Below are positions 2,710 through 63,775 of a DNA stretch of 64,000 nt, in pieces. A program made the translations under genes and the position numbers. How positions within the stretch are numbered: the stretch's first letter is position 1; each line of letters starts with the position of its first letter. The stretch is from positions 13,039 to 77,038 of the forward strand of contig CAYRCD010000005.1 in assembly GCA_964422735.1 (NCBI GenBank), read 5' to 3'. The notes beneath the pieces are model-generated. The model worked only from the letters and a program-made list of their open reading frames with translations. It made no database searches and was not told the origin of the DNA. This DNA comes from an uncultured Dehalococcoidia bacterium (lineage in GTDB: Bacteria; Chloroflexota; Dehalococcoidia; DSTF01; WHTK01).

Positions 2710-6002
<3,293 letters not shown>

Positions 6003-47825: not shown

Positions 47826-48848
47826 TCAGGCGGCGGCGCGATGAAGGACCCGGACCGGGCCTCCAACGCGGGCGCGCCAGTAATCGAGCAAGTCCGCCAT
47901 GGTCCTCTCGAAGGCAATGCGTGGCGCCCAGCCGGTCGCCGCCCGGAATTTGGAGCAGTCGCCCACCAGGACCGGGACGTCGGACGGACGCAACCGCTCG
48001 GGGTCGGTCTTTACCTCGACCTCGATGTCGGTCATTTCGAGCAGCATGTCGAGCACCGAGCCGATGGTGTAAGCCTTGCCGCTGCAGATGTTGTAGACCT
48101 CTCCCGGTTCGGCGTGCTGTACGGCCAGCCAGTAGGCCCGGACGACGTCGCGGACGTCCGTGTAGTCGCGCTCCGCTTCGAGGTTGCCGACGTAGATGAC
48201 GGGCGGCCGCTGCCCGGCCTCGATCTCTGCCACCTGGCGGGCGAAATTCGAGGTCACGAATGTGTCTGTCCGGCGCGGGCCCTCGTGGTTGAATGCCCGC
48301 GTGCGGATGATGCGCAGGCCGTAGCTCCGGAAGTACTGGTAGCCGAGGTAGTCCATCGCAAGCTTAGAGACCGCATAAGGCGAAAGCGGCCTTAGTGGAG
48401 TGCTCTCGGTGATGGGCAGGTCTTCCCGTTCGACGTGGCCGTATTCTTCGGAGGAGCCGGCGATCTGGATGACGGGTTGGATGCCGGCCTCGCGGACGGC
48501 TTCGAAGAGGTGGATGCTGCCGACCAGATTGGTCTCCATCGTCGTGGCAGGGGAAGCCCACGACGACGGCACGAAAGACTGGGCCCCGAGATGGAAGATG
48601 TAATCCGGCCGCGCTTCGCGCATTACCCGGCGCAGCGAGTGCGCATCGGCGAGGTCACCCTCCTTCAGGAGGAGCCGGCCCTTGATCCCCTCGATGTTGT
48701 CGGTCTGGGACCGGAAGCGCGTCAGCCCGTGGACTTCGAGGCCCTCATTGAGTAGAAGCTCGGCGAGATGACTCCCGACAAACCCGGTGATGCCCGTGAT
48801 GAGGGCCCTTTTCGAAGGCCGCCCCACTGCTCGCAACGTGCTTTCCAT
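47826..48848 (-). CDS. GDP-mannose 4,6-dehydratase family protein (Gmd/Rmd-like)
   Basis: ITGITGFVGSHL, HLGAQSFV, GSSEEYG, SPYAVSK, FNHEGPRR, GNL...RDYTDVRD; AAGGAG RBS. Confidence 0.88.
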   Translation of the reverse strand: MESTLRAVGRPSKRALITGITGFVGSHLAELLLNEGLEVHGLTRFRSQTDNIEGIKGRLLLKEGDLADAHSLRRVMREARPDYIFHLGAQSFVPSSWASPATTMETNLVGSIHLFEAVREAGIQPVIQIAGSSEEYGHVEREDLPITESTPLRPLSPYAVSKLAMDYLGYQYFRSYGLRIIRTRAFNHEGPRRTDTFVTSNFARQVAEIEAGQRPPVIYVGNLEAERDYTDVRDVVRAYWLAVQHAEPGEVYNICSGKAYTIGSVLDMLLEMTDIEVEVKTDPERLRPSDVPVLVGDCSKFRAATGWAPRIAFERTMADLLDYWRARVGGPVRVLHRAAA

Positions 48849-48938
48849 GCCTGATCTCTCCTTCAAGCCGCCGGCCGCACCGCCCGGCTTCATCATCAGT
48901 ATTCGGCGAGGTGCGAATTGGTATCCATGGGTGGAAAC

Positions 48939-49005
48939 CCAAGTTTTTGGTGAAATCGCCGAGAACTGCCCTGGGCGCTAAAGAGTGCTGACGGATCGCC
49001 GACTA
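48939..49005 (+). promoter_or_regulatory. tandem sigma28 (FliA/WhiG)-type promoters
   Basis: CCAA(GTTT)-N15-GCCGAGAA at 48939-48965 and TAAA-N15-GCCGACTA at 48979-49005. Confidence 0.7.
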
Positions 49006-49066
49006 TGCATCTGTGAGGGGTCGGACAGGCCCTGAGATCAATATGCAACGGAGGAGTCCAGAGTCG

Positions 49067-49507
49067 ATGAAGTTTTCCCGCAAGCAGTCATTGTTCGTAG
49101 GCATGCTCGCCGCTGGAGTGGCGCTACTGGCCGCGACAGCGTTCCTGCCGTCCCCGACGACGTTCGGCAACGAGACCGACGACCAGCGGGCCGCGGCCGA
49201 GGCGCTCGCTGAGAAATCCGCCGCCGAAAACGCCGCGAAATTCCCACCCGGCCCGCGCGTCGCGTTCCCGCCGGCCGCGGCGCCGGCACAGCCGCCCGCC
49301 GCGCCGATTGACACGCCGGCGTCAGCACCCAGCCAGCAGGCTCCCACCGGTGGCACCGACGGCGCGGCGGCGCTGCCCTCGGCCGGTAATGGCGGTTACC
49401 TCGACGCCGGGACCCAGACCAGCCTCGGTTACATGCTCATGGGTATTGGCGTAGCTCTTCTCGGCTCGGGCTCCATCGTCTGGGCTTACGGCCGCCGCCG
49501 GCGTTAG
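49067..49507 (+). CDS. secreted Pro/Ala-rich protein with LPxAG sortase-like sorting signal
   Basis: Signal peptide; LPSAG followed by a hydrophobic TM and RRRR tail; GGAGGAG RBS. Confidence 0.72.
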   Translation: MKFSRKQSLFVGMLAAGVALLAATAFLPSPTTFGNETDDQRAAAEALAEKSAAENAAKFPPGPRVAFPPAAAPAQPPAAPIDTPASAPSQQAPTGGTDGAAALPSAGNGGYLDAGTQTSLGYMLMGIGVALLGSGSIVWAYGRRRR

Positions 49508-49531
49508 CAGGCGATCGGACAGCAAGCTCGC

Positions 49532-49575
49532 GAAAGCGGACCGCTCTCCGGAGCGGCCCGCTTTCCTGGCTTTTG
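49532..49575 (+). terminator. intrinsic terminator-like hairpin
   Basis: GAAAGCGGACCGCTC-TCCG-GAGCGGCCCGCTTTC followed by a T-rich tract. Confidence 0.7.
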
Positions 49576-49582
49576 GGCAAGG

Positions 49583-51556
49583 ATGCGGATGGTTGAGATA
49601 GCGCGCCGGGCAGCTCGGCCTTCGGGACGCGGCGCCAGCATGGCCTTGGTCCTCGCCTGCGTGGCCCTGACGCTGGCCGTCGCGCTGCCGGTCTTGGCCG
49701 CTGGACGCTCCCGCCTCACATCGGACGAGTCTCTCTACACCGCTGAAGCACTGAACATCGCCACGGGCAGGGGCCTTACCTACACGACGGGCACGCCCAT
49801 CAGCCATCGCGCCCCCCTCTACCCCGCGATCCTCGCCGTTGAGCTAAGAGCAGGCGGCCTCTCACTCGACCGGGCTTACCTTGTACCCGGCCTTGCGGTC
49901 GTGGCAAACGCCCTCCTGGTGTTCTGGCTAGCGCGGAAGCTGTTCGGCAGCCTTGCCGGCATGGTCGCCGGGACGCTAGCGGCATCTTCTCCTTACGTCT
50001 CCGGCCTGGGCACCACCCTTTTCCTCGACGGACTCGAATCCACTTTCATCCTGGGATCGCTGATCGCGTACTGGCGGGCGTGCGAGGCCCCAAGCCTCGG
50101 CCGTCACGTCGCGGCCGGCTGCCTGCTGGGGATCGCATTCCTGATAAAGGAGTCCGCGCTCCTCCTTTTGCCACTGCCCCTCATAATGCCGCTCCTGGCC
50201 GGAAGGCAACGGGGCTGGCGGGCGGGCATTGCGGGCTGGACCACCGGCTTCGTCGCCGCGACGGGATGGTGGTGGGCATGGGTGCTCTGGCACACGCATG
50301 CTGTCTACCTGCTCGGTTCTGTCAACGATCAACACACGCGGCTTGCCGTGGCGACGGCGGCCGCAGCCGTCGCGGCGGTCGCGGCCGCCCTCTCGCGCGC
50401 AGGCCGGGAGCTTCGCCCCCGCCCGAGCGCCTGGACGAGAGTGACCGCCTGTGTGCTCTTCGCGGCCTGGGCCGGCATCTTCATTGCCGGCCTCGAGTGG
50501 CAGAGTTGGCAACACCCAGGCACGTATCTGGCAGACGTCCCCGATTACGCGATGAACGTCCTCCTGCCCGCTGTCAGGCCGGCGCCGCTGTTCGCCGCCG
50601 CCTGGCTCTGGGCCGCGGTCAGCGCCGCCCGGGGTGACCGCGGCGCGGCCTTGATCGCCGCGGCCGGAGGATTGGTCCTGCCCTTCGCCGTGTTCGTCGC
50701 CAGTCGCGGCCTTTCGCTGCGCGACATGCTGCCCCTGATCTACCTGTCCTGCGTGGTCCTGTCAGGCGCGGCGTCGCGACTTGTAGCTTGGGGCGAGAAG
50801 CTGGCCCGAGAAGGAGACACGGCCTTTCCCGCCCGGGCGGGCCTGGCCGTCGTCGTGGCGTCCATGGTGACGATAGGCCTGCTGGGTCTGGGCCGCGTCG
50901 ACCGAAGCAGCGCGACCAGCCCCGAGGGCGACTGGGACAACGAGCTTGCCCATAGCGTCGCCGACTGGCTGGATGCGAACGTGCAACCCGGCACGTCAAT
51001 CATGTCTACACGGCTTTATTACTCGCATGTCTACTTCCTCACGGGCGGCCGTTACCCGATACGCCAGCTGCCGACCGCCGAAGTGACCCTCCGGCCTCAA
51101 GGCCCCTCGCCTCTTGCCCGCCGTGGCGCCTTGTTTCGTTGGGAAGGCCCCCGGCTGGGAGCTAACTCGCCGGATGACGTCTGGCTCTACCTGACGCTGT
51201 ATCCGGAGAAGGGTTATTACGTGGGCCTCGCGGAGTCAGACCTGATCCATGAGCTCAAGCGCGATGGCACCGGCTATCTCGTGGTCAGCGTAAGCGACGC
51301 GGGCTTCAGCTCGCCGGCGCTCGTACCCTACTTCGATCAAGACCCTGCATTCAGCAAGGTCTTCGAGCGGCGACTGTCGGACGCGGACGCGGTGAGGGTG
51401 TACCGGGTCAACCTCGAGGCACTGGGGCCTGGGCATCGTCCGACAGCCGTCAGCGCGGCTGCGCTGGGGAGCATCGAGGGCCGGCTCGGCCCGGACGGGG
51501 CGGCAGGGTTCCTGCGTGGCCTCAGTCCCTCGGGATTCGAGGTGTGGCCCTGGTGA
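49583..51556 (+). CDS. ArnT/PMT-like (GT-C) membrane glycosyltransferase
   Basis: SDESLY, HRAPLYP, GIAFLIKES; many TM segments and a soluble C-terminal domain. Confidence 0.75.
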   Translation: MRMVEIARRAARPSGRGASMALVLACVALTLAVALPVLAAGRSRLTSDESLYTAEALNIATGRGLTYTTGTPISHRAPLYPAILAVELRAGGLSLDRAYLVPGLAVVANALLVFWLARKLFGSLAGMVAGTLAASSPYVSGLGTTLFLDGLESTFILGSLIAYWRACEAPSLGRHVAAGCLLGIAFLIKESALLLLPLPLIMPLLAGRQRGWRAGIAGWTTGFVAATGWWWAWVLWHTHAVYLLGSVNDQHTRLAVATAAAAVAAVAAALSRAGRELRPRPSAWTRVTACVLFAAWAGIFIAGLEWQSWQHPGTYLADVPDYAMNVLLPAVRPAPLFAAAWLWAAVSAARGDRGAALIAAAGGLVLPFAVFVASRGLSLRDMLPLIYLSCVVLSGAASRLVAWGEKLAREGDTAFPARAGLAVVVASMVTIGLLGLGRVDRSSATSPEGDWDNELAHSVADWLDANVQPGTSIMSTRLYYSHVYFLTGGRYPIRQLPTAEVTLRPQGPSPLARRGALFRWEGPRLGANSPDDVWLYLTLYPEKGYYVGLAESDLIHELKRDGTGYLVVSVSDAGFSSPALVPYFDQDPAFSKVFERRLSDADAVRVYRVNLEALGPGHRPTAVSAAALGSIEGRLGPDGAAGFLRGLSPSGFEVWPW

Positions 51557-51660
51557 CGCGCCGCGGGAAGAGGGTTTCCCTGCATGCACCAGGACGTGGT
51601 GTTGCCGATCCTGTTAGTGAAGGACCGGCCGAGGCCAGGCCGACAAGGAGGTAATCAGCC

Positions 51661-52683
51661 GTGAAGCTAATCGTCACAATTCCCGCTTACGACGAAGAGC
51701 AGAACATTGCCGAGGTCATCCGCGAGATACCGAGGCGCATCCCCGGCATCAGCCGCGTAGAGGTGCTGGTTGTCGACGACGGTTCGCGCGACGAGACGGT
51801 GGCGACCGCTCTGGCCGCCGGCGCCGACTACGTGGTCAGCAACGCCCTGAACCGGGGCCTGGCTCAGACATTTCGGCGGGCACTCAACGAAGCTCTGGTC
51901 CGCGGCGCGGACATCATTGTCAACACCGACGCCGACAATCATTACGATCAGACACGCATGCCCCAGCTGATAGCCCCGCTCTTGCGCAACGAGGCCGACC
52001 TCGTGGTCGGCAGCCGAGTGCTGAGCGCGCTCAAGATGAAGGCCGCCAACAAGCACGGCAACCGGCTCGCGAACTTCCTTATGCAGCGTCTCTTGAAAAT
52101 CCCCGGCATCGACGTCTCATCCGGGTACCGCGCCTACACCCGGGAAGCGGCCATGCGCCTCAACATCCTCTCCAACCACACTTACACGCACGAGACGCTG
52201 TTCAATGCCCTGGACCAGCAGCTGCGGATCGTCAGCGTGCCTCTCGAGGCCCGACACGTCGAACGGCCTTCGCGCCTGATCAAGAGCCTCCCCAGGCACG
52301 TCTGGCGCGCGGGCGGCGTGATTCTCAAATCGCTCCTGCGCTATCGCCCTCTCCAAGCCTACGGCACGGTTGGAGCATTATTCGCTCTCGCCGGCAGTGT
52401 GCCATTCGCTCGCTACCTCTATTTTGTCGCCCAGAGTCAGAGCGCCGGACACGTGCAGTCGCTAATCGCGGGCACCGCGCTCCTGTTTCTGGGCATACAG
52501 TCCGTCGTGGTCGGCTTGCTCGCCGCATCGATCGGCTGGAACCGTCAGTTGATGGAGGAGATCCTCTACCGGATGAAGGACGATTCGACGCCGGCGCCTT
52601 CGGCCGAGGTCATCGCCTTCCCGGCACCTCGTGAGCGGGTCGCGACACCGGCCAGCCACAACCGAAGAGCCAGGGCAGCCTGA
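51661..52683 (+). CDS. glycosyltransferase family 2 (polyprenol-phosphate sugar synthase-like)
   Basis: IPAYDEE, VVDDGSRD, NRGL, NTDADNHY, D.SSGYRAY, two C-terminal TMs; AAGGAGGT RBS. Confidence 0.9.
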   Translation: MKLIVTIPAYDEEQNIAEVIREIPRRIPGISRVEVLVVDDGSRDETVATALAAGADYVVSNALNRGLAQTFRRALNEALVRGADIIVNTDADNHYDQTRMPQLIAPLLRNEADLVVGSRVLSALKMKAANKHGNRLANFLMQRLLKIPGIDVSSGYRAYTREAAMRLNILSNHTYTHETLFNALDQQLRIVSVPLEARHVERPSRLIKSLPRHVWRAGGVILKSLLRYRPLQAYGTVGALFALAGSVPFARYLYFVAQSQSAGHVQSLIAGTALLFLGIQSVVVGLLAASIGWNRQLMEEILYRMKDDSTPAPSAEVIAFPAPRERVATPASHNRRARAA

Positions 52684-52709
52684 GCGATTACTCCCTGGCG
52701 CGCGTCGTT

Positions 52710-53240: not shown

Positions 53241-53280
53241 GTCCACACTCCTCGCTTCCAAGCGATCCCGCCTGTTAAGA

Positions 53281-53307
53281 GAATCGGCGGCGGCGGGCGG
53301 AATCTGA
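53281..53307 (-). promoter_or_regulatory. sigma28-type promoter
   Basis: TCAG-N15-GCCGATTC on the minus strand, 40 nt upstream of the HTH gene start. Confidence 0.55.
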
Positions 53308-53416
53308 TAGGCGTGGATACGCGAAGGGGACGGCCTCTGACCCGCGTGGACGATTTCCGGCGGCGGCCATGGGCACCCTCTTGAAGGCCAGGTCTCAGAT
53401 TCCCTAGGCCCAAACC

Positions 53417-53443
53417 CCAAGTTTCGCCGATAGGTGCCGAAGC
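53417..53443 (+). promoter_or_regulatory. sigma28-type promoter
   Basis: CCAA(GTTT)-N15-GCCGAAGC, ending 8 nt before ATG 53452. Confidence 0.55.
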
Positions 53444-53451
53444 TATGTTTG

Positions 53452-56148
53452 ATGAGATCGCTTCCCGCCGCGGCCGGCTTGATCCTGGCCTTGTATCTGG
53501 CCGTCCGAGGCGTGGCGCCGCCGGCGCCGGAGCGGCTGCATGTCGCGGTCATTGCCGCGGAATCGTACGACGGCGCCCTCATGATCGACTCCGACGTCGA
53601 GGACCAGACGCGCCGCGCCGGCCTCATCGTCGTCGGCCGCGTGGCCAAGACCCAGGCGAAGAGCATCCCAGGTAGCGTCGAGACGACCGTCACCGTGGAC
53701 GTGGAGCGTCCACTGAAGGGCACTGCCGGCCCGACGGTTACCTTCACTCTTCCCGGAGGCGGAATCGGCAACCTGCACGTCTTCGCCGCGGGCGTACCGA
53801 ACTTCCTGCCCGGCGAGCGCGTCCTCCTCTTCATGCGCGGCCCCAACGACCCTCGCCTGGTGCAGATGTGGCAGTCGAAGTTCTCGCTGGCCGGAAACGA
53901 GGCGGTGCAGCTCGAATCGAAGACCAGGATGCCGATCGCGGACATGGAGCGGCGCGTGGGCAACGTCACGGGCCGGACCGCCTTCATCGGCGCCTCGTCA
54001 GACACGGTCTCCGTCATCGGCTTCACCACCTTCTGCCTGCCCTGGAAGTCGGCTGACCTTCCGGTGCCGTTCGAGGTGACATCGGCGAATCCGGGGGCTG
54101 GTGGCGCTACGGGCGTGAACTTTACCCGGCTCGCGTACGATTCCTGGCACAACTGGCAGGCTTTACCCGACTCCTTCCCTTCGTTCCGCTATACGGGCAC
54201 GGCGACGCACGACCCCAACAACCACAGCGATGGGTTCAACACGGTTTCTTACACCGACCTCGACAGCTGGGGCAGCGGGACGATCGGCATCAACTTCTGC
54301 ACCACCAACGCCACCGAGCGCATCGATTCCGACACGTTTATCGACAATACCGGCTGGACCTGGGACTGGGACGACAGCAACGGCATCACCGGGGGAACGC
54401 TCGCCGAGCAGTCGACCATGGAGCACGAGTTGGGCCACGGCCTTGGCCTGGGCCACAGCGACGCCACATGCGACGGTACTGCGGCCACGCCCCTCATGTG
54501 CCCCGTCGTCATGACCGGGCAGCGCAAGATCATCCTCGCCGACGACCAGGCCGGCGCGGCCGCCAATTACCCGCTCTCCGGCGCATCCCCGGGAGCGCCC
54601 GGGAGCGTAGCCGTGATCGCCGGCTCCGGCTCTAACACGGTCCAGTGGACCACGTCGTCGGGCACGCCCTTCGCGTACGACGTCGAGCGCTCGGGCGCAG
54701 GCTGCGGCGGACCGTTCAAGTCGATCGGCACCGCCCAGCGCAGCGTCACAAGCTTCGTCGATAACGACTTCGGCGCCGGTCTGGGCGCCGGTCCCTACTG
54801 CTACCGCATGAAGGCGCTCGGCCAGGGCGGCGATTCGCCTTACTCGAACACTGCTTCCGTCGGCGGCCCATCGCCGACCCCCACGCCGACCGGGACACCC
54901 ACACCAACTCCCACCTTGACTCCCACACCAACCGCGACGAACACACCGTCTCCAACGGCGACGCGGACGCCGACCGCCACGGCGACGGCGACGGCCACGC
55001 AGACGCCCGTGCCTCAGTATGGCGTCACCTGGGGCGCCCACACGACGCCGGCGTCGCTCCTCGCGGGCTCGACGAACTTCGTCAACCTTACGTTCACGAA
55101 CGCGGGACAGCTGACATGGCAGAACAGCGGCGCGAACCCCGTGAGATTCGCCTATCACTGGAAAAACGGCGCCTGTCCGGGCTCGACAACGGCAACGTGG
55201 GATGGCGTACGGACGAACCTTGGCGCTCCGGTGAGCACGGGCGCGATCGTCTCGGCCCTGTCCGCCCAGATCAACGCCCCCGCCGCTTTCGGGACGTACT
55301 GTCTCGTCTATGACCTCGTCCGTGAAGGCATCACCTGGTTCAGCTGGCAAGGCGCTAACACCCTGGCCGTCACCGTGAATGTCACCGCGCCAACCTACGG
55401 CGTGTCGTGGGGATCGACCTCTACGCCGGCGAGCCTTAACGCCGGCGTAACCACGAACGTTACGATCTCGTTCACCAACATCGGCATGCTGACCTGGGAC
55501 CCGGGCGGCGGCAATCCCGTGCATCTCGCCTACCACTGGAAGAGCGGCGCCTGCCCCGGCGGTGCAACCGCGGTCTTCGACGGACGGCGCACCAACCTGC
55601 CGGCTAACGTCGCCCCCGGCGCCGCGGTGAACAACCTATCGGCGCAGGTTATGGCGCCGTCATCGTCCGGCACCTACTGCCTGGTCTACGACCTCGTGCG
55701 CGAAGGCATTACCTGGTTCAGCTGGCAGGGTGCGGCCACGCTGACGCGGACGATAACGGTGAATGCGCCCGCGTACGCAGTTTCCTGGGGCGCGGACACG
55801 ACGCCCGCCTCCATGCAGGTCAGCACCGACAACGCCGTGACGCTGACATTCACGAACACGGGATCACTGACCTGGGATAGCCTCGGGGCGAACAGGGTCA
55901 ATCTCTCCTATCACTGGAGGAACGGCGCCTGCCCCGGCGGGTCGACGGCGGTGTGGGACGGGTTAAGGACAGGCTTGCCCGCGGACGTTCCCAGCGCCAA
56001 TACGGTCACCAACCTGAACGCGACGATCCGTGCGCCCACGGCGGCCGGGACCTACTGCCTGCAGTTCGACCTCGTGCGCGAGGGCATCACCTGGTTTAGC
56101 TGGCAGGGCGCCGCCACTCTGGCACGCACGGTAACAATCACACCCTAA
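53452..56148 (+). CDS. secreted metzincin (M10/matrixin-like) metalloprotease with FN3-like domain, Pro/Thr linker and three Ig-like repeats
   Basis: Signal peptide; HELGHGLGLGH and Met-turn LMCP; (TP)n/(TA)n linker at ~54868-55010; three 126-aa repeats. Confidence 0.82.
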   Translation: MRSLPAAAGLILALYLAVRGVAPPAPERLHVAVIAAESYDGALMIDSDVEDQTRRAGLIVVGRVAKTQAKSIPGSVETTVTVDVERPLKGTAGPTVTFTLPGGGIGNLHVFAAGVPNFLPGERVLLFMRGPNDPRLVQMWQSKFSLAGNEAVQLESKTRMPIADMERRVGNVTGRTAFIGASSDTVSVIGFTTFCLPWKSADLPVPFEVTSANPGAGGATGVNFTRLAYDSWHNWQALPDSFPSFRYTGTATHDPNNHSDGFNTVSYTDLDSWGSGTIGINFCTTNATERIDSDTFIDNTGWTWDWDDSNGITGGTLAEQSTMEHELGHGLGLGHSDATCDGTAATPLMCPVVMTGQRKIILADDQAGAAANYPLSGASPGAPGSVAVIAGSGSNTVQWTTSSGTPFAYDVERSGAGCGGPFKSIGTAQRSVTSFVDNDFGAGLGAGPYCYRMKALGQGGDSPYSNTASVGGPSPTPTPTGTPTPTPTLTPTPTATNTPSPTATRTPTATATATATQTPVPQYGVTWGAHTTPASLLAGSTNFVNLTFTNAGQLTWQNSGANPVRFAYHWKNGACPGSTTATWDGVRTNLGAPVSTGAIVSALSAQINAPAAFGTYCLVYDLVREGITWFSWQGANTLAVTVNVTAPTYGVSWGSTSTPASLNAGVTTNVTISFTNIGMLTWDPGGGNPVHLAYHWKSGACPGGATAVFDGRRTNLPANVAPGAAVNNLSAQVMAPSSSGTYCLVYDLVREGITWFSWQGAATLTRTITVNAPAYAVSWGADTTPASMQVSTDNAVTLTFTNTGSLTWDSLGANRVNLSYHWRNGACPGGSTAVWDGLRTGLPADVPSANTVTNLNATIRAPTAAGTYCLQFDLVREGITWFSWQGAATLARTVTITP
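55018..56145 (+). repeat. three intragenic tandem repeats, 378-bp period
   Basis: Units start at 55018, 55396 and 55774; each has YHWxxGACPG and YCLxxDLVREGITWFSWQGA. Confidence 0.92.
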
Positions 56149-56262: not shown

Positions 56263-57381
56263 GTGCGCGTCGGCATCGTTTCTTACGACTTCTTCCCTGC
56301 CAGGGGAGGCCAGGGCCGCTTTACTCGCGACCTCTGGGACAACCTTTGTCAGATCGCGGATTTGGAGCTTCGCGTCTTTTCACCCGCGGCGAACAGTCTC
56401 GCCGGCCATGTGCGCGTCGGAGCATTAGCATCGCTCGGCCGCGGGCCGGGCTTCTCTCTCGTACCTTCGTGGAACCTGGACCGCTGGGCCGAGGAATACG
56501 CCATCGACCTGTTCCACCTCAATGGCGGGCCGGGCGGCGTGCTTTTGCTGCGCCGACCGCACGTCCCTTATGTCTACACGGCGCATCACACTTACGCTCA
56601 GCAGGCGCGCCTCGTGCCCGGCCAGTCCTGGAAACGCGTCCTGGCCCAGGTCGAAGCTCGCGGGTACCGCGGCGCCCTCGGCGTTGCCGCCGACACCGCG
56701 TCTACTTCCGCATCCTTGACCTCGGAGCTTGGCGTGGCGCCCGAAAGGGTGACCGTCATCCCCAGCGGCGTGAATCACCGCGAATTTCGACCCCGCAACA
56801 TCTCGCGACTTAAGGACAGCGTCCTCTTCGTCGGCCGCCTCGACGCGCGCAAGGGTCTGGAGTTCCTGCTCGACGCCTGGCCCATCGTACTCGCCGCGAA
56901 GCCTTCGGCTCGTCTGTACGTCATCGGTGACGGTCCATTACGGACAAGCGCCGAGCGCCGGGTCACGGATCTTGGGCTCGGCGGCACGGTCGCCTTTCTA
57001 GGACGCGTCGCCCAGGACAGGATGGCCACCTGGTATAACCAGGCGACATGCGTAGCCGTCCCGTCCATATTCGAGGGCTTCGGCCTGGCCGCGGTCGAAG
57101 CCATCGCCTGCGGGACGCCGGTGGTCGCGAGCGACGCCGAAGGTCTCCGAGACGTCGTGGTGGACGGAGTCGACGGCCGCCTTGCCCCTTACGGCGATGC
57201 GGAGGCGTTCGCCGAAGCGCTCATCGACGTGATCGCCCGGGGCCGCCGGCTAACGCCCGCCCGGGTCGCCGAGGTGCGGGCGATGTATGACTGGCCCGCG
57301 GTGGCCGCCCGCTATTGTCACCTGTATTACTCCGCGGCCGGATGGCCGCGAATAGGTGCCTCGATCGAGAGCGCAGCTTGA
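56263..57381 (+). CDS. glycosyltransferase family 4
   Basis: LFVGRL..RKG, EGFGLAAVEAIACGTPVVAS. Confidence 0.92.
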   Translation: MRVGIVSYDFFPARGGQGRFTRDLWDNLCQIADLELRVFSPAANSLAGHVRVGALASLGRGPGFSLVPSWNLDRWAEEYAIDLFHLNGGPGGVLLLRRPHVPYVYTAHHTYAQQARLVPGQSWKRVLAQVEARGYRGALGVAADTASTSASLTSELGVAPERVTVIPSGVNHREFRPRNISRLKDSVLFVGRLDARKGLEFLLDAWPIVLAAKPSARLYVIGDGPLRTSAERRVTDLGLGGTVAFLGRVAQDRMATWYNQATCVAVPSIFEGFGLAAVEAIACGTPVVASDAEGLRDVVVDGVDGRLAPYGDAEAFAEALIDVIARGRRLTPARVAEVRAMYDWPAVAARYCHLYYSAAGWPRIGASIESAA

Positions 57382-59309
57382 CCGCTGCTCGGACCATATC
57401 GCGGTCTGGGCCACCGCCCGAAAGGATCCTCGGGCTGTTCGTGAGCACGGTGGTCAGCATCGTGGCGTTGTCGCTCGCCGCGGTCCTCTTTCCTTCAAGC
57501 TTCTCGCTGTTCAGGGCCAATGGCGTCCTCGCGGGCTTCGAGCAGGAACACCTTGTCCTGGCGCGCAGTCTTGCCCAAGGCCACGGGCTCTCCATCGACG
57601 TAAGCGGCCTGAATCCCCTGTACGGGGGCGACCACCGGGCCCTTTTCGATGGCCGGCTCGTCCCGCGAGGCACGGTCCTCCCTTATCTCATCTACGCCGT
57701 CCCGTTCCTCGTGTCTGACACGGCCTGGATCGTTGTAACACCGGCGTTTGCGGTGCTCGCCGTTCTGGCCGCCGGCCTCATCGTCGAGAGCCGAACGGGC
57801 AGCCTCGCCGCGGCCGGCGGAGCTTGCCTGGCCCTATTCGCGGCGTCGCCATTCTTCCTGGCCGCGAGCGGCATTGCCTACGAAAACATGATCGCCCTTG
57901 CTTTCCTCCTCTGGGGTATCTACTGGACGGACCGGTTCACCCAGCGACCCCGCGTCGCCACTGCCGCCGCGGCGGGACTCATGTTCGCCGCCGTGGCCAT
58001 GACGCGCGCCGACTATGCACCGGCGCTTCTCCTCTTCGCGGGGTTTCTTGGCGGCTGGTGCGCGCTGCGGTGGTGGCGCAGTGATCCTCGCCGAAATACG
58101 GCCCTCCTCGGTTCGATCGTGGGAATCACGATCGGAGCAAGCGGGATCGCGGTTGACCTCGCGACAAACTACCTGGTGACCGGTGATCCGTTGCACACCG
58201 CGTATGGTCCGAGCGCCTGGCAGGGTTCCGTCAGCGGCGTCGCATCAAATCTGGAAGTCTTTTCGCTCGATGATTTCGTCCGGCAGGCGCGATATTTTCT
58301 CTGGGATATCGGCCGGCCTTCAACCCTGCTGCTTGGAGTCGGTATCGCTGGCATCGCGGTCCGCCGCGGCCTCACCGGCGGCGAGCTCATCTTGTTTGGA
58401 CTCGGCGGCTTTCTGATCTACTTCGACCTCGGCAGGCCGGGGCTCCATGCCACCGACGCCGCCGTTCTCATGTCGAGTCCGCCGCGCTATCTCCTCCCGG
58501 TGTATGCGACCGGAATCGTCGTCGGCTTCTCAGCCCTTCCGTCTTGCCTGCCGCGTAAACTTTCCGTTCTGCCGCTGGTCACTCCGACCATCCTGATGTC
58601 AGTGGCCCTTGTCGCCTCCGTCCGTGGCCTCCAGGAGGCCTACGAACCGACCTACGGCATACCTCGCGTAGAAAGGATCGTCACTCGCTCTCGCATCGCG
58701 CATGACTTCTCGAAGACTCAGCCAGACGCTCTGTTCGTGGGCGACCTCGATACTCGGGGTATCATCGTCACCCAACGGATCCTGGTGCCACGCCTGGCCG
58801 GCGACCTGGAGCAGGTCACCGCCGCGGTCCGTAACGAGATCGCCTCGGGGCGCAGGGTCTTCGTCGTCGACGACCCGCGCCAGCTTGTGGGGCACCCTGA
58901 TTACTCGGGATATCGAGAGGCGATCCAGGGAGCGGGCATGTTCATCTGCAGGGGCAAGGATTTGGCCCTGCCCTCTGAAGTGATCGGCGACATTCCCGGG
59001 GCAGCGCGACTCATTGCCAGTCTCACCATCCCGACCGATGGCGCCAGCGTGCTCACACCCGCTCTCACCAGGGACACGCTCTATTACTTCGGCGTGAGCG
59101 GCACTTTCACGTACAACGCGGCTGGCGCCAAATCCGACGGCGTGGACCTCGCGGTCGACCGCAGGAGGACAGCGCCCGTGCCTTCCCCCGACCACCTGTA
59201 CTGCAAGAGCTATATCGGGACCGGCGAACCGGCGGTGGTCGGCGTTTTCGACCAATCGCGGTCAGACAATGTCGGCTCGCTCAACGTCGTCATCTATCGG
59301 GCGGACTGA
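57378..59309 (+). CDS. multi-pass membrane protein, probable GT-C glycosyltransferase
   Basis: Many TM segments, PRYLLP motif, soluble C-terminal domain. TTG overlaps the upstream stop. Confidence 0.6.
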   Translation: MTAARTISRSGPPPERILGLFVSTVVSIVALSLAAVLFPSSFSLFRANGVLAGFEQEHLVLARSLAQGHGLSIDVSGLNPLYGGDHRALFDGRLVPRGTVLPYLIYAVPFLVSDTAWIVVTPAFAVLAVLAAGLIVESRTGSLAAAGGACLALFAASPFFLAASGIAYENMIALAFLLWGIYWTDRFTQRPRVATAAAAGLMFAAVAMTRADYAPALLLFAGFLGGWCALRWWRSDPRRNTALLGSIVGITIGASGIAVDLATNYLVTGDPLHTAYGPSAWQGSVSGVASNLEVFSLDDFVRQARYFLWDIGRPSTLLLGVGIAGIAVRRGLTGGELILFGLGGFLIYFDLGRPGLHATDAAVLMSSPPRYLLPVYATGIVVGFSALPSCLPRKLSVLPLVTPTILMSVALVASVRGLQEAYEPTYGIPRVERIVTRSRIAHDFSKTQPDALFVGDLDTRGIIVTQRILVPRLAGDLEQVTAAVRNEIASGRRVFVVDDPRQLVGHPDYSGYREAIQGAGMFICRGKDLALPSEVIGDIPGAARLIASLTIPTDGASVLTPALTRDTLYYFGVSGTFTYNAAGAKSDGVDLAVDRRRTAPVPSPDHLYCKSYIGTGEPAVVGVFDQSRSDNVGSLNVVIYRAD

Positions 59310-59317
59310 TTCCTACC

Positions 59318-60451
59318 GTGAAGATTGGGCTGATTACCGACTCGATAGGGAGGGGTAGCCCCGGGCTCCAACGCTACACGATGCGCTTGAGCGAAGAGTT
59401 GATTCGCATCGTCCCGGGTGATGTCACGCTGTTCCACCGCACCGCGGCGTCGCACCCCTTCTACGATGGGAAGCAAGCGGTTGGTCTCGTCGCCCCCCGA
59501 GGCGCGCTCTTCGCGAAGCAGTTGCTGTTTAATCAGGCCGTCCGCAAGTACCACCTCGACGTGCTTCACGACACCTATCACTTCCCCCCATTCCTGTTCC
59601 CGTCGGACTACGCGCGCGTCATGACCGTGGCCGACCTGACGCCTCTGCTCATGAAAACCCACAATCTGCGAAACCGCCTTGCTCACAAGCTGCTGTTTCC
59701 TCTCCTGGTAAGGCGCGCGGACCACATCGTGACCATCTCCCAGTACACGCGGGACGACATCATCCGGGTCCTCGGCGTACCGCCTGACAAGGTCACGGCG
59801 ACGCCCCTCGCCGCGGACGAGAGCCTGGCGCCGGTCGAGGACGCCGCGCACATCGCCGAAACGAGAGCGCGTTACGCCCTGCCGGAGCGCTTCTTCCTCT
59901 ACGTCGGCACCATTGAGCCACGCAAGAACCTGCCTCGCGTGCTCGACGCGCTGTCCACGCTCCGTTGTGAGCACGCGGATGTCCGCCTCGCGATAGTGGG
60001 CGCCAGGGGCTGGGGCCAGGACCTGGCGCGGCTGGCGGCGCGTCTGGATTTGACGGACAACGTGCTCTTTCTCGGCCGCGTCCCCGAGGAGGACCTTTCG
60101 GCTCTGTACAGTGGCGCGACGGCCCTCGTGTTCCCATCTCTCTACGAGGGCTTCGGCCTCCCGCCCCTCGAGGCCCTTCAATGCGCTTGCCCGGTGATAA
60201 CGTCGAACGTGTCGAGCCTCCCGGAGGTTGTCGGCGAAGCGGCCATCCTCGTCGACCCACAATCAACGTCCGCGATCGCGGAGGCGATGAAGGCCATATT
60301 GAACAACGAATGTTTGGCCCGGGAACTAAAGGCAAAAGGTCCGATTCAGGCGAAGCGCTTCTCCTGGCGCCGCTGCGCCGAAGCGACGCTCGCCGTCTAC
60401 GAACGCGTCGCGACGCTTCCAGCGCGAAGCCCGCGGCACGCTATCTCTTAG
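59318..60451 (+). CDS. glycosyltransferase family 4 (mannosyltransferase-like)
   Basis: YVGTIEPRKN, FPSLYEGFGLPPLEA, SNVSSLPEVVG. Confidence 0.92.
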   Translation: MKIGLITDSIGRGSPGLQRYTMRLSEELIRIVPGDVTLFHRTAASHPFYDGKQAVGLVAPRGALFAKQLLFNQAVRKYHLDVLHDTYHFPPFLFPSDYARVMTVADLTPLLMKTHNLRNRLAHKLLFPLLVRRADHIVTISQYTRDDIIRVLGVPPDKVTATPLAADESLAPVEDAAHIAETRARYALPERFFLYVGTIEPRKNLPRVLDALSTLRCEHADVRLAIVGARGWGQDLARLAARLDLTDNVLFLGRVPEEDLSALYSGATALVFPSLYEGFGLPPLEALQCACPVITSNVSSLPEVVGEAAILVDPQSTSAIAEAMKAILNNECLARELKAKGPIQAKRFSWRRCAEATLAVYERVATLPARSPRHAIS

Positions 60452-60473
60452 GAGACCCGGAGAAAGTCTGCCC

Positions 60474-61958
60474 TCAGGCGGTGACCTCGCCCGAGGCAAT
60501 CCTGAACCGCCAGGCCGCGGCCATGTAGACGGCGGCCGCGGCCCCGACTGAGACCCCAAGGGGCACCCATCCGGCGATCAGCAACAGGACTGCGGCCATT
60601 ACCGCGCTCGCCAGCAGCGGCCCTCTCGCCATGCCCCAGGCGTCGCGGAGTGGCAGAAGGGCTCGCGAGTCGGCGGCCATGAAGACCAGGACTGTACATT
60701 CAGCCGCCAGCGTTGCTACGGCCGCGCCGTTAAGGCTAAAGCGGGGGAGCAGGACGACGTTCAGGGCGACATTCACGATCGCCCCAAGGAACACACCGAC
60801 CAGGTAGATACGCTGCCTGTCCCGTACCAGGAGATTGGAGCCGTAGAAGCTGGACGCGAACATCACACCGGCGGTGACGTTCAGGACCAGCATCGCGAAG
60901 GCGCCTGGCCCATACGCCTGGCCATACATCGCCACCATGAGAGGCTTGGCAACCAGCGCTCCTCCGACGGCGATTGGCAGGCCAAGACCGAGGGAGACCT
61001 TCCCGTAATAGCGCAGCAACGGCCGCGGCCCAGGACCCGCGACGGCGCGAGACTGGGCCGGAAGGAATGCCGCTCGAATCATCGCCACCATCCCCGTCAC
61101 CCACAGCGCCGGGGCGTAGGCGGCCGTGTACCAGCCGATCTGCGTTTGCTGACCGAGCGCACCCATCATGACGCGGTCGAAGTAGTAATAGACCGCCGTC
61201 GTCATCATCGCCGCGGCCACCGGCCACAGGTCGCGCAGCAGCCGGCGGGCGATCTCGGCATCGAAGTGCAGGCCGCGGGGGAGAAAGCGAAAGGCAACGA
61301 TAAGGCCCATCGCCAGCAGCGCCGCGCAACTCACAGCGAGATATGCCCCGGCGAGCACGATTACAGACGCTTCCAGGGCCACCAGGGCCGCTATCGCCGC
61401 GAGCAGCACGACCGACTGAATTGATGTGACCAGCGCCTCGATGCCCATTCGCTCGTGCGCGCGCACGACCGCCTGCAGGACAAGTGTGAGAGACGAGGTG
61501 AGCATGCCGGCGCCCAGCAGGTAGATCAGCAGCCTGGTCTGGGGGTCGTGGTTTACCAGCGGCTCGACCGCGGCGAGGAAGCCTACGAACACGAGGCTTA
61601 TCGCGAGCTTGAGGATGGCGGCCGTACCGTAATACCCGGCCGCGCGTTCGCCGCGTGCCAGGTCGCGCACGCCGATAGTCGAAAGGCCCAGGTCGGCCGC
61701 GGAGAGGAAGAAGCTCACGAATGCCAGCGCGAAACCCCAGTGGCCATACGCTTCCGGCCCCAGATGCCGGGCGAGCAGAGCGGACCGGAGAAACTGCGTG
61801 ACGCCCGCGACCACCTGGGCGGCAACCAACCATCCAGCATTGGCAAGAATGCGGCCCGCCAGAAACGCCAGGCCCGTTTCAGCGTCGTCTGCTGCCCCGG
61901 GCGCGAGAGTGGGGTCGGGGGCCGGGACGGCTCGAAGGCGCGAGGCCGTTGCGGTCAA
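60474..61958 (-). CDS. Wzx-type flippase
   Basis: LARHLGPEAYG, DLGL...GVRDLAR, DRVMM...GWY.AAY, N..LN..LLP.F...GAA.AT. Confidence 0.88.
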   Translation of the reverse strand: MTATASRLRAVPAPDPTLAPGAADDAETGLAFLAGRILANAGWLVAAQVVAGVTQFLRSALLARHLGPEAYGHWGFALAFVSFFLSAADLGLSTIGVRDLARGERAAGYYGTAAILKLAISLVFVGFLAAVEPLVNHDPQTRLLIYLLGAGMLTSSLTLVLQAVVRAHERMGIEALVTSIQSVVLLAAIAALVALEASVIVLAGAYLAVSCAALLAMGLIVAFRFLPRGLHFDAEIARRLLRDLWPVAAAMMTTAVYYYFDRVMMGALGQQTQIGWYTAAYAPALWVTGMVAMIRAAFLPAQSRAVAGPGPRPLLRYYGKVSLGLGLPIAVGGALVAKPLMVAMYGQAYGPGAFAMLVLNVTAGVMFASSFYGSNLLVRDRQRIYLVGVFLGAIVNVALNVVLLPRFSLNGAAVATLAAECTVLVFMAADSRALLPLRDAWGMARGPLLASAVMAAVLLLIAGWVPLGVSVGAAAAVYMAAAWRFRIASGEVTA

Positions 61959-63142
61959 ACCGCTTCCTCAATTGTCCGCAGCTCGCTGCCGGCACCGGCC
62001 TCGAGCACGGCCCGATAGACGGCGGCGGTCGCTTGACCAATCGGAGCCCAGTTCAACTCTCGACTGAGGCGGAGGGTTTCGCCCCCAAGGCGCTCGCGTA
62101 GTACGTCGTCTCCCAGCACCATCGTCAGGACTCGCGCAAGCGCCCCTGCGTCCCCGGGCGGAACGACCAGGGTGCGGTCCAGCACGAAGTCCGGTAGGCC
62201 CCCGACTGCGCTGACGATGAGCGGGCGGCCAAAAGGCAGCGCCAGGGCGGCGACCGCGCTCTGGGCGTCGAAATGTGTGTAGGGGAGCGCAACGACGTCA
62301 GCCGCCAGGAAGAACTCTTCGACTCGGGGCGTGGGGACGAAGTCGAGGAACAGCCGCACCGATTCAGCGATCCGGTGGCGCTGGATCGCATCGGCATAAG
62401 GTTGCCAGCTGCCCCACGGCTTGCCTGCCACGACCAGGAGCGCCCTCGGATCGCGAGCCCGCACCTCCGCGAAGGCCTCGATGAGGACGTCGAGTCCCTT
62501 GTAGGACCGGATGTTCCCAAACGCGAGGACCACGCGCGCGTCCTCTTCGATCCCGAGCCTCCGCCGCGCATCGGACCGGCTGATGCCCGTGCGGGGGGCG
62601 CCGATTGCGCCCATCGGGAGCACGTCGATGCTGTCGGGCCGGCCCGTGGCCGCGGCCAGAGCCTCCCGGTTCTTCTCCGAGTGGACAATGAAGCGGTCCG
62701 CGAAGCGAAACACCGCCTGGTTTAGCCAGCGCTTCAGGTTGCCGGACTCGTGCGGGCTAACGTTATGCACCGTCATAACCACGCGGCGACCCCGCAGACG
62801 CGCGACCGCCAGCACCGTCAGGTAGACCGGCAACAGCGCGAAGCTCCACCATTGAGCGTGGACGACGCGACCGCGGAGCGTGAGTCCCGCCCAGAGCCAG
62901 GAAAAGGGGTTGTACCACGCCAGTGGTTGGCGCACGCGCACGCCGGCGAACGTCTGCTTCGGCAGCTTCTCCGCCGGAGCGCCTCCCGGATAGAGCCATG
63001 AAGGGTAAATCGACGAGAAACCCACGAACTCGAGCTCGACGTCATCGAGGTTCGAAAGACTGCTGACCAGCTCCGCCGTATACGGCGACACACCCTTGAT
63101 CGGTGGCAGTGCGCCGATCATGGAAATGCTCGTCGAGCTCAC
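61955..63142 (-). CDS. glycosyltransferase family 4
   Basis: TVHNV.PHE, FGNIRSYKGLD, ADVVALPY...QSAV, VGGLP. GTG 63142 chosen as start. Confidence 0.88.
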   Translation of the reverse strand: MSSTSISMIGALPPIKGVSPYTAELVSSLSNLDDVELEFVGFSSIYPSWLYPGGAPAEKLPKQTFAGVRVRQPLAWYNPFSWLWAGLTLRGRVVHAQWWSFALLPVYLTVLAVARLRGRRVVMTVHNVSPHESGNLKRWLNQAVFRFADRFIVHSEKNREALAAATGRPDSIDVLPMGAIGAPRTGISRSDARRRLGIEEDARVVLAFGNIRSYKGLDVLIEAFAEVRARDPRALLVVAGKPWGSWQPYADAIQRHRIAESVRLFLDFVPTPRVEEFFLAADVVALPYTHFDAQSAVAALALPFGRPLIVSAVGGLPDFVLDRTLVVPPGDAGALARVLTMVLGDDVLRERLGGETLRLSRELNWAPIGQATAAVYRAVLEAGAGSELRTIEEAV

Positions 63143-63241
63143 GCCTGTGGTTCGGCCCGGGGTTCGCTCTTTGATCCTGGCGCCTCCGTGCACCGGTGAG
63201 ATGGCCGACGGGGCGGCGGGCTAAAGGCCATCTCTAAGTCA

Positions 63242-63268
63242 ATATCGGCAACACTCCGGTCGAGTTGA
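63242..63268 (-). promoter_or_regulatory. sigma28-type promoter
   Basis: TCAA-N15-GCCGATAT on the minus strand upstream of the GT4-flippase operon. Confidence 0.7.
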
Positions 63269-63285
63269 GGCGCCTCGTTGCTAAC

Positions 63286-63456
63286 ATGGAAGAAATGAAG
63301 GATGGCGAGGACGCAACCGGCCGTTCCAGCCGCTGGCGGCGGCGGGAAACGCGGCGCGAACGAGAGCGTCGCCGGATCAAGAAGCACGGCGCCAGCCTTC
63401 AGCGCGTGTACGTGAACGCCGTCCGGAAGCGGGTCCGAAGGCTCGGTCAGACGTAA
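63286..63456 (+). CDS. small Arg-rich hypothetical protein
   Basis: 56-aa ORF MEEMKDGED...RRERERRRIKKHG... filling an otherwise empty gap. Confidence 0.5.
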   Translation: MEEMKDGEDATGRSSRWRRRETRRERERRRIKKHGASLQRVYVNAVRKRVRRLGQT

Positions 63457-63559
63457 TCGGCACTGAGACATCTGCCGATCGGTTGACAGCCGTGATATAT
63501 TTACTCACGCGCTTTAGCGCCTGACTCTCGTTTTTCCCGCGGCTGAGGCATCCAACGAG

Positions 63560-63775
63560 ATGGTGAGCGACCCCTTCGACAATTACCTCGACCTGGTGGA
63601 GGCGGCGCGCATCCTCGCGATCCACCCGCAAAGCCTGCGCCGGCTGATCAAGCAGAAGAAGGTCCCGGCGGTGATCTTCGCCGGCAAGTACCTGATCGAG
63701 CGTGACAAGCTCGAGATGTTCAAGGCGAACTACGACCCTCGCCCGGGACGCAAGCCGCTTCGCCGCCTGCTGTAG
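63560..63775 (+). CDS. small HTH (excisionase-like) DNA-binding protein
   Basis: YLDLVEAARILAIHPQSLRRLIKQKKVPA..FAGKYLI. Confidence 0.8.
   Translation: MVSDPFDNYLDLVEAARILAIHPQSLRRLIKQKKVPAVIFAGKYLIERDKLEMFKANYDPRPGRKPLRRLL

Follow-up and report, generated by a model that had tools for sequence, protein, structure and literature searches.

Predicted sigma28-type promoters at a surface-glycosylation island of an uncultured Dehalococcoidia bacterium in which no flagellar genes were found

Sigma28 belongs to textbook flagellar biology, and its non-flagellar uses are few: sporulation in Streptomyces, pili in Rubrobacter, and late genes in Chlamydia. Here we describe candidate sigma28-type promoters in a 64,000-nucleotide stretch of DNA (the window, G000:C5:13039-77038) from the genome of an uncultured Dehalococcoidia bacterium (G000), where they face genes of a 16-kb surface-glycosylation island at positions 47826-63775. 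We think it likely that a FliA/WhiG-family sigma factor, kept in this organism, in which no bacterial flagellar genes were found, starts transcription of three or four units of the island, from sites at 48979, 56146 and 63268 (minus strand) and, as a weaker candidate, at 53417. Coordinates given without a contig are positions in the window.

The system that most resembles this one is the WhiG regulon of Rubrobacter radiotolerans and R. xylanophilus, where 12 promoters were mapped, 5 of them in front of diguanylate cyclase or phosphodiesterase genes and 3 in a pilus cluster (PMC8325347). There as here, a unicellular, non-flagellate monoderm has a flagellar-clade sigma factor and TAAA/GCCGATAA elements within 200 nucleotides of start codons, and the targets are surface-structure genes together with several diguanylate cyclase/phosphodiesterase genes; in G000 there are four predicted sites before GGDEF-containing units and one before a class III cyclase unit. 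The two differ in that Rubrobacter belongs to the Actinobacteria, uses the sigma factor for type IV pili and has mapped transcription starts, whereas our genome belongs to the Chloroflexota and its sites are predicted from sequence alone. In place of type IV pili, the candidate targets are a sortase-anchored Pro/Ala-rich protein, GT-C, GT2 and GT4 glycosyltransferases and a flippase, with archaellins in relatives. Rubrobacter has an RsiG-(cyclic di-GMP)-WhiG switch, and in G000 a link to cyclic di-GMP (c-di-GMP) is suggested by a conserved HD-GYP neighbor of the sigma gene and by the GGDEF targets. Sequence, spacing, conservation and the presence of the sigma gene all place the sites in the sigma28 class, and the finding would work like the Rubrobacter WhiG regulon and not like a flagellar regulon. 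The sigma28 promoter class itself is known; the phylum and the target set are new here. If the reading is right, it would extend sigma28 to the Chloroflexota, with an LPSAG protein, the GT-C dedicated to it, the operons of GT4 and flippase genes and a number of GGDEF cyclases as targets, and it would give a concrete, testable regulon for a lineage without a cultured member.

The G000 assembly comprises 2.53 Mb in 119 contigs (66% G+C) and is 58.7% complete with 0.85% contamination. Genes were called with a simple GC3-based open reading frame (ORF) picker, which under-calls (2118 genes, 79% of the genome). We refer to a match as promoter-like, or in promoter position, when it lies outside called genes and a called gene of the same strand begins no more than 200 nucleotides downstream. 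The comparison set has 41 genomes including G000, from 5 families and 18 genera, 26 of which were of high quality for the FlhA search; G001, the sister genome, is 96% complete. Sites were scored with a 23-site matrix built from non-island sites only (20 from relatives and G000 paralogues, and 3 further G000 sites) and with an independent 14-site matrix trained on the GGDEF family and three G000 sites. We also counted the loose pattern of the preliminary description of this DNA, [TC][AC]A[AG]-N15-GCCGA.

That description had called for a fliA/whiG-type sigma gene in the genome, and there is one at G000:C3:76644-77315 (as a 239-amino-acid protein, 76620-77336), which scores 193.6-193.9 bits against TIGR02479 (FliA_WhiG), above the cut-off of 189.6. 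The solved structures nearest to it are Streptomyces WhiG 6pfv (E 2e-37; 6pfv and 6pfj about 1e-37), E. coli FliA 6pmi (E 5e-32), and Aquifex FliA 1rp3. With the NCBIfam WhiG equivalog model it scores 172 bits, where the cut-off is 343, and by that test it is therefore not a WhiG orthologue. The nearest named database records with this gene are from metagenome-assembled genomes of uncultured Dehalococcoidia or Chloroflexota, at 58-74% identity. All 41 genomes searched, G000 included, have a match; most hold one at 53-77% identity, and relatives also hold a second group-3-like sigma factor at 35-41% identity. An HD-GYP phosphodiesterase gene follows the sigma gene in 17 of the 18 loci with enough sequence (in G000, the locus at G000:C3:75144-78815). 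We noted that the sigma/HD-GYP junction of several relatives bears a sigma28-type site of its own (G001 24.4, G006 20.2, G014 16.8 bits); no site of at least 13 bits was found at the G000 locus. The sigma factor ends in Ala-Ala, which is invariant or nearly so.

Flagellar structural and export genes were not found. Flagellin (Flagellin_N) had no match in G000, FlhA (FHIPEP) was found in none of the 41 genomes, and FlgM in none of 5, so the late-flagellar context in which these sites had been placed does not apply. The classical FliA late flagellar regulon shares with G000 the sigma family, the two-block consensus and the 15-nucleotide spacer; it differs in that the G000 targets are unrelated to flagella and no flagellar apparatus was found. 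Streptomyces WhiG is alike in being the nearest solved structure by sequence and in its non-flagellar, c-di-GMP-linked use of a flagellar-clade sigma factor, and differs in that G000 is without sporulation targets and the Dehalococcoidia lineage is not known as filamentous.

The evidence for a promoter class comes mainly from spacing. In promoter position, TAAA-Nk-GCCGA occurs 6 times at k=15 in G000 and 0-2 times at each of 21 other spacings (k from 6 to 27). The 23-site matrix yields 21 matches of at least 16 bits at k=15, 13 of which are promoter-like (4 of the 13 are training sites, and 3 fall in the island), compared with 0-2 promoter-like matches at other spacings from 9 to 22. G001 replicates the peak, with promoter-like fractions of 8/14 at k=15 and 8/15 at k=16 versus 1/5 at k=12 and 1/7 at k=18. 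The loose pattern at k=15 has 594 matches in the genome, 22 of them promoter-like, and 5 of these 22 are in the island, for which its length predicts 0.14; spacings 12-14 and 16-18 give 0-2 matches there. The binomial values for this enrichment are post hoc, since the region was picked for these matches, and they survive correction for about 160 windows of the same size. The site at 53281 (minus) is left out of the five because the gene caller missed the HTH gene behind it. Based on the sigma gene and on the spacing counts in G000 and G001, we conclude that a spacing-specific sigma28-type promoter class exists in this organism. The sigma factor would most likely recognize TAAA-N15/16-GCCGA(A/T/C)(A/C)(A/C).

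Less restrictive counts give no such signal. Genome totals of TAAA-Nk-GCCGA taken without gene context do not peak at k=15 (12, range 2-26 over k=8-25), and neither the CAAG variant of the -35 box nor partial -10 variants are in excess at N15 in G000. GCCGA alone has 18,405 copies in the genome, and the island has 115 against 116.06 expected from the genome rate, so bare GCCGA boxes are background; the weaker boxes that had been pointed out before the dehydratase, the GT2 gene and the last HTH gene belong with them. A sigma70-consensus scan of the island returned 1 site (1.6 expected), and a terminator scan found 16 (9.2 expected), mostly inside genes.

Six island sites had been proposed, and all six 27-mers are indeed there, each on its reported strand, facing the adjacent gene, and with exactly 15 nucleotides between the -35 4-mer and GCCGA. 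The 4-mer is TAAA only at 48979 and 56146; it is CCAA at 48939 and 53417, TCAG at 53281 (minus) and TCAA at 63268 (minus). For WhiG/FliA promoters, PMC8325347 describes the use of a "flagellar" consensus, TAAA/GCCGATAA, with no more than 2 mismatches in total. Three sites fall within that limit, 56146 with 1 mismatch and 48979 and 63268 (minus) with 2 each, whereas 48939, 53281 (minus) and 53417 have 3, 4 and 5.

We accept the promoter at 48979 on its high score and its conserved footprint. It scores 19.5 bits with the 23-site matrix and 14.8 bits with the 14-site matrix, and orthologous upstream regions bear TAAA/TCAA-N15/16-[GA][CT]CGA at -54 to -98, with an element of this type upstream of the orthologues of the small secreted protein in G003, G001, G007, G019, G014, G017, G036, G027 and G022. 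With the 14-site matrix, 6 of 19 such regions score at least 13 bits and 10 of 19 at least 12.4; for the control spacings 11/12 and 19/20 the count is 0/19, with a maximum of 10.1 bits. The sites at 56146 (18.1 and 16.7 bits with the 23-site and 14-site matrices) and 63268 (minus; 18.3 and 16.2 bits) are probably also real promoters of this class. In G001 the former has a counterpart, TCAA-N16-GCCGACAA, at an equal distance (-117 in both), which scores 18.6 bits (controls -3.7 and -2.9), and the latter, which lies in a roughly 100-nucleotide divergent region between a GT4 gene and a small basic ORF, has the counterpart AAAA-N15-GCCGATAA at 16.2 bits (controls 1.6 and 2.3).

The site at 53417 scores 10.0 bits in G000 with the 23-site matrix, and orthologues of the 898-amino-acid gene that it faces have better ones: sites of 13.8-16.8 bits are present in 4 of the 5 orthologous regions with enough upstream sequence (G003 15.8, G001 13.8, G019 16.5, G007 16.8 bits). 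In G000, G001 and G003 alike the -10 8-mer ends exactly 8 nucleotides before the ATG, and this identical gap implies a leaderless transcript. A conserved promoter of leaderless mRNA whose -35 box has degenerated in G000 is thus a plausible, if weak, interpretation.

Neither the remaining two sites nor the bare GCCGA boxes are likely to be promoters of this class. The site at 48939 scores 6.2 bits and has no counterpart in the upstream regions of G001 or G003, and its T-run comes after a small hairpin at 48928-48941. The site at 53281 (minus) scores 5.7 bits, TCAG-N15-GCCGA is without excess at spacing 15, and neither the G001 nor the G003 locus has the HTH_17 gene behind it in this position. 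Overall, then, the preliminary description was partly supported: it was right on the genes, the sigma family and roughly half of the sites, and it made too much of the GCCGA boxes, of the HTH promoters and of the analogy with flagellar genes.

It had also drawn attention to an extended -35 box at two of the sites, and both CCAA sites, 48939 and 53417, do carry CCAAGTTT. A GTTT extension of the -35 box is a feature of enterobacterial FliA promoters; it is not conserved among our 23 training sites. The two sites share AAACCC(C)AAGTTT (AAACCCAAGTTT and AAACCCCAAGTTT, at 48935-48946 and 53412-53424), a 12-13-mer with only these two copies in the genome, each of which is the -35 side of its site. 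It could be a variant -35 box or the site of another regulator, such as an island HTH_17 protein. AAGTTT-N11-GCCGA has 4 matches in the genome, of which 2 are promoter-like, both in the island, with 0 promoter-like matches at other spacings, which is too few to call.

The scan of the island with the 23-site matrix (at least 8 bits, N15 or N16) listed nothing for the GCCGA boxes at 48900-48907 (minus) and 51604, and gave 8.1 bits for the box at 63474. This last box (63454-63481, plus) is the opposite strand of a palindrome, CCGATCGG, over which an N16 site, GTAAAT...ACCGATCG, at 63476-63503 (minus) scores 14.3 and 16.0 bits on the two matrices. The N16 site is 283 nucleotides upstream of the GT4 gene and just 3' of the small basic ORF, pointing back into that ORF.

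Several observations weigh against the proposal that the sigma factor starts three or four island units. G000 is 58.7% complete and its called genes cover only 79% of the genome. The training sites of the matrices were chosen by regular expression, which makes the core positions circular. With the 14-site matrix and its training sites removed, G000 shows no clear peak, either at 13 bits (8 promoter-like matches at k=15, 1-8 elsewhere) or at 15 bits (3 and 0-3), so the genome-wide signal in G000 comes from roughly a dozen sites and varies with the matrix. At k=15 the -35 variants TCAA, TAAG, CCAA and TCAG show no excess in G000, and therefore 63268 (minus) and 53417 lean on comparative evidence alone. 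The TAAA of 56146 overlaps the TAA stop codon of the 898-amino-acid gene, which partly explains it. The counterpart of 56146 was seen in G001 only, with none at the G017 orthologue, which sits inside an operon, and that of 63268 (minus) likewise in G001 only, with none at the orthologues in G039, G026, G017 and G027. The proposed unit behind 48979 has internal gaps of 81 and 104 nucleotides and a weak hairpin at 49550-49564. A search for sequencing runs with this DNA returned 8 DNA runs from 2 studies and no RNA run.

Much of this would suit a narrower explanation, in which only 48979 is of the sigma28 class and the GT4, flippase and 898-amino-acid units use other promoters, their matches being chance or relics. 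Broad conservation across several families is seen at 48979 only, the single-genome counterparts and the unexceptional TCAA and CCAA counts point the same way, and 53417 reaches just 10.0 bits. We nevertheless consider this explanation unlikely, given that the island has 5 of the 22 promoter-like loose matches, that the G001 counterparts score 18.6 and 16.2 bits while their control spacings do not exceed 2.3, and that the 8-nucleotide gap to the ATG of the 898-amino-acid gene, identical in three genomes, is hard to obtain by chance. The sigma70-consensus scan also put no site at the places of the GT4, flippase and 898-amino-acid promoters.

It is less likely still that the TAAA-N15-GCCGA element is real and read by another factor, either a different alternative sigma or a DNA-binding regulator. 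Candidates for such a role are the second group-3-like sigma factor of relatives, the extracytoplasmic function (ECF) sigma/anti-sigma pair at 38524-39861 in the window, and the two HTH_17 proteins of the island. Against them, the element equals the WhiG/FliA "flagellar" consensus of -35 TAAA and -10 GCCGATAA, as given in PMC8325347; its two-block form, its fixed spacing of 15 or 16 and its position 20-110 nucleotides before start codons fit a promoter; and the FliA/WhiG-family sigma factor is the best-scoring match for that specificity. It is highly improbable that every match in the island arose by chance, in a genome of 66% G+C where GCCGA is common, and that the island is an ordinary constitutive polysaccharide cluster, since the expected GCCGA count, the flat genome totals and the 14-site matrix are outweighed by a sharp k=15 peak in promoter position that G001 repeats, by motifs kept upstream of orthologues although the spacers diverged, and by the enrichment of the island.

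We infer from the above that the FliA/WhiG-family sigma factor reads these sites, and the units that it would start are as follows (Table 1). From 48979, it would transcribe the gene of the 146-amino-acid predicted wall protein, with read-through into the PMT_2 GT-C gene and the GT2 gene. From 56146, it would transcribe the operon of a GT4 gene, a gene for a 655-amino-acid membrane protein and another GT4 gene, and from 63268 (minus) the operon of a GT4 gene and a Wzx-like flippase gene; the products of these two operons would build and flip a lipid-linked glycan. From 53417, the weaker site, it would start a leaderless mRNA for the 898-amino-acid secreted HELGH protein. The idea that the island forms one co-regulated program would hold for three or four units; the HTH genes, the dehydratase and the GT2 gene's own box are without a supported site, and the GT2 gene could be transcribed by read-through from 48979.

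Table 1. Sites and genes of the island and its left flank, and predicted targets on other contigs of G000. Positions are those of the window; contigs are given for targets outside of it.
Feature	Position or contig	Strand	Details
Predicted promoter P1	48979..49005	+	TAAA-N15-GCCGACTA; 61 nt from ATG at 49067
Probable promoter P3	56146..56172	+	TAAA-N15-GCCGAGAA; ends 90 nt before GTG at 56263
Probable promoter P4	63242..63268	-	TCAA-N15-GCCGATAT; ends 48 nt before GTG at 63193
Weak site	53417..53443	+	CCAAGTTT...GCCGAAGC; ends exactly 8 nt before ATG at 53452
Unsupported site	48939..48965	+	CCAAGTTT...GCCGAGAA; 14 nt upstream of P1
Unsupported site	53281..53307	-	TCAG-N15-GCCGATTC; upstream of HTH_17 gene
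GT-C, 714 aa	45617-47761	+	PMT_2 (91.8 bits) and YkcB_C (Pfam); left flank
NDP-hexose 4,6-dehydratase	47826-48848	-	Left flank
Secreted Pro/Ala-rich protein, 146 aa, putative sortase substrate	49067..49507	+	From translation
GT-C (PMT_2)	49589..51556	+	42.6 bits, cut-off 26.1
GT2, polyprenyl-phosphate hexose synthase-like	51661..52683	+	Glycos_transf_2, 72.9 bits
HTH_17 protein, 178 aa	52710..53246	-	33.5 bits, cut-off 27; GTG start at 53246 inferred from ribosome-binding site and translation
Secreted protein, 898 aa, HELGH metalloprotease-like, with C-terminal domain	53452..56148	+	From translation and profile search
Tight operon GT4 / 655-aa membrane protein / GT4	56263-57381, 57342-59309, 59318-60451	+	GT4 by Pfam
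Operon GT4 + Wzx-like flippase	61955-63193, 60474-61958	-	Glycos_transf_1, Polysacc_synt
Small basic ORF, 53 aa, Arg/Lys-rich	63295-63456	+	No Pfam family; divergent from GT4/flippase operon
Second HTH_17 protein, 71 aa	63560..63775	+	HTH_17, 36.9 bits
GAF-GGDEF genes (three)	C18, C67, C20		Predicted sigma28-type site upstream
Fourth GGDEF gene, within a unit	C32		Predicted target
Membrane protein, then class III cyclase	C11		Predicted target
TetR and PAS genes	C89		Predicted targets
Zinc-ribbon proteins	C73, C16		Predicted targets
GH130 and GT4 genes	C24		Predicted targets
DivIC	C10		Predicted target
VWA protein	C75		Predicted target
Cupin, thiolase, acyl-CoA dehydrogenase	C4		Predicted targets

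The gene content of the island had been read correctly in the preliminary description: the GT2, GT4, GT-C and flippase genes, the sortase-type substrate, the secreted protease, here a HELGH metalloprotease-like protein, and the HTH proteins, here two of HTH_17 type, are all present. The 146-amino-acid protein has the features by which sortase substrates are judged from sequence, namely a signal-peptide N-terminus (MKFSRKQSLFVGMLAAGVALLAA...), the LPXTG-like motif LPSAG (A where the canonical motif has T), a transmembrane-like segment that starts at residue 120 and a terminal RRRR, and Sortase (PF04203) has five matches in the genome. It has no Pfam family and 5 database relatives without an informative name, one of them a "hypothetical protein", and its orthologues keep TFGxETD, PPAAP(I/V)(D/E) and LP[SN][AT]G. 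Elsewhere in G000, two sortase genes are directly upstream of one of the GAF-GGDEF genes with a predicted sigma28-type site (G000:C67:306-1621 and 2360-4045).

In 12 of 21 loci (families f1, f3 and f4) the gene directly 3' of the small-protein gene is an orthologue of the PMT_2 GT-C gene, and in G003 the orthologue of the other GT-C gene, that at 45617-47761, is directly upstream of the small-protein gene. Both island GT-Cs exceed the PMT_2 cut-off of Pfam and have 8 transmembrane-like segments each, and their assignment is to the PMT_2 family level only. The GT2 gene, probably the last gene of its unit, has AglJ, dolichyl-phosphate hexose transferase and PpgS as its best NCBIfam matches, all below the equivalog cut-offs. 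The products of this unit would form a protein O-glycosylation module like Pmt/Ppm, with a secreted Pro/Ala/Thr/Ser-rich peptide, a dedicated GT-C that may glycosylate it, and a GT2; this suggestion draws on established knowledge of GT-C enzymes. Actinobacterial Pmt/GT39 protein O-mannosylation, which works with a polyprenyl-phosphate-mannose synthase, is alike in that a PMT_2 GT-C stands beside a polyprenyl-phosphate-hexose-synthase-type GT2 and a secreted candidate substrate of this composition. It differs in that the sole match to the Pmt equivalog model in the island is a weak one (23.9 bits, cut-off 800), by the other GT-C, that of 714 amino acids. To our knowledge, dedicated pairing of a GT-C with one small sortase substrate has not been described for Pmt systems.

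The genes of the GT4/655-amino-acid/GT4 operon overlap or stand 8 nucleotides apart, and the order of the first GT4 gene and the 655-amino-acid gene is kept in G001. The 655-amino-acid protein has 5 transmembrane-like segments and a weak match to a putative glycosyltransferase family (LA_3751/3752), with no firm family. In the other operon the GT4 and flippase genes overlap by 4 nucleotides, and the pair is also kept in G001. Of the parts of a Wzx-dependent glycan assembly cluster, a Polysacc_synt flippase and three GT4 genes are present, and among the scanned ORFs of the island none was recognized as a priming transferase. The 898-amino-acid protein has a signal-peptide-like N-terminus, HELGH at residue 325, Peptidase_M10 and metallo_LGF matches that are weak and below the cut-offs, and no sorting signal. 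Its C-terminal half (residues about 510-898) is multiplied in G014, with 9 matches on several contigs, which suggests a mobile or expanding surface-domain family. Read by eye, G001 has an ORF like the 53-amino-acid basic ORF in the corresponding position.

Outside of the island, predicted sites stand 20-110 nucleotides before the start codons of genes on other contigs (Table 1). The footprint is also seen in relatives. At the GAF-GGDEF loci, 12 of 30 have TAAA/TAAG/TCAA-N15/16-[GA]CCGA at -62 to -83 from the alignment start, in spacers that have diverged, and distant paralogues of families f2 and f3 have no motif. The zinc-ribbon protein of 90 amino acids (G000:C73:11262-11534), a CxxC...CxxC protein of 85-97 amino acids in the set, is found in 25 of the 41 genomes; its predicted promoter in G000 is among the top scores and is conserved in G001 and G003. 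Of its upstream regions, 6 of 23 reach 13 bits, compared with 1 and 0 at control spacings, and on inspection by eye a GCCGAAA-type -10 box is retained at -77 to -107 in about 15 of 23, with a variable -35 box. Judging from these alignments, genuine sites in this clade can evidently do with a poor -35 box. With the GGDEF and zinc-ribbon genes sharing its promoter type, the island would supply the surface-glycan part of a lifestyle program based on sigma28 and c-di-GMP. Nearly all zinc-ribbon orthologues end in Ala-Ala, as does the sigma factor, and this shared end may mark a degradation tag or a regulatory partner.

The archaellum is a further surface structure of this class of bacteria. A paper on the bacterial archaellum of the Chloroflexota names Dehalococcoidia as bearers, gives O-glycosylation of the bacterial archaellin as probable and suggests reuse of existing bacterial glycosylation machinery (PMC12488501); neither "FliA" nor "promoter" occurs in it. 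Our system is alike in class and in that Arch_flagellin (PF01917) genes are present in 30 of the order's 41 genomes (above the cut-off in 29); it differs in that neither an archaellin gene nor a match to a T2SSE-type ATPase was found in G000, which is 58.7% complete. Seven of 28 archaellin upstream regions have a site of at least 12 bits, compared with 0 of 28 at control spacings, and 6 of the 7 sites fall between -124 and -141, counted from the domain start (G001 21.1, G033 20.5, G003 19.1, G015 18.7, G005 14.4, G016 12.3 bits). In G001 an exact TAAA-N15-GCCGATAC is 54 nucleotides before a PF01917 gene (locus L132:1501-2166, G001:C155).

A search of the open full-text literature found no paper that mentions FliA or a sigma factor together with the archaellum and the Chloroflexota, and transcription of the archaellum is not addressed in the archaellum papers that could be searched; in relatives of G000, a flagellar-type promoter precedes archaellin genes. 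Tentatively, in this archaellum-bearing order of Dehalococcoidia the sigma factor may have outlived the flagellum and been rewired onto a horizontally acquired archaellum, c-di-GMP enzymes and surface glycans, with the island glycosylating and anchoring surface proteins, possibly archaellin among them. If this is true, it shows how a regulator of the host can take charge of machinery that came from a different domain of life. Also in G001, an exact TAAA-N15-GCCGA lies in non-coding DNA (G001:C57:25602-25625, minus) about 3.3 kb upstream of a same-strand T2SSE-family ATPase gene (G001:C57:21404-22258), and by analogy with Rubrobacter a pilus-type operon controlled by this sigma factor may lie here.

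We noted three other features elsewhere in the window. A 1581-amino-acid protein at 25173-29915 (plus) combines kinase, AAA_16, TPR and class III cyclase domains, and there is a coding TAAA-N15-GCCGA at 25202. At 38524-39861 (minus), the ECF sigma gene is accompanied by a gene for an RskA-type anti-sigma factor, and a third PMT-family GT-C is encoded at 16821-18227 (minus).

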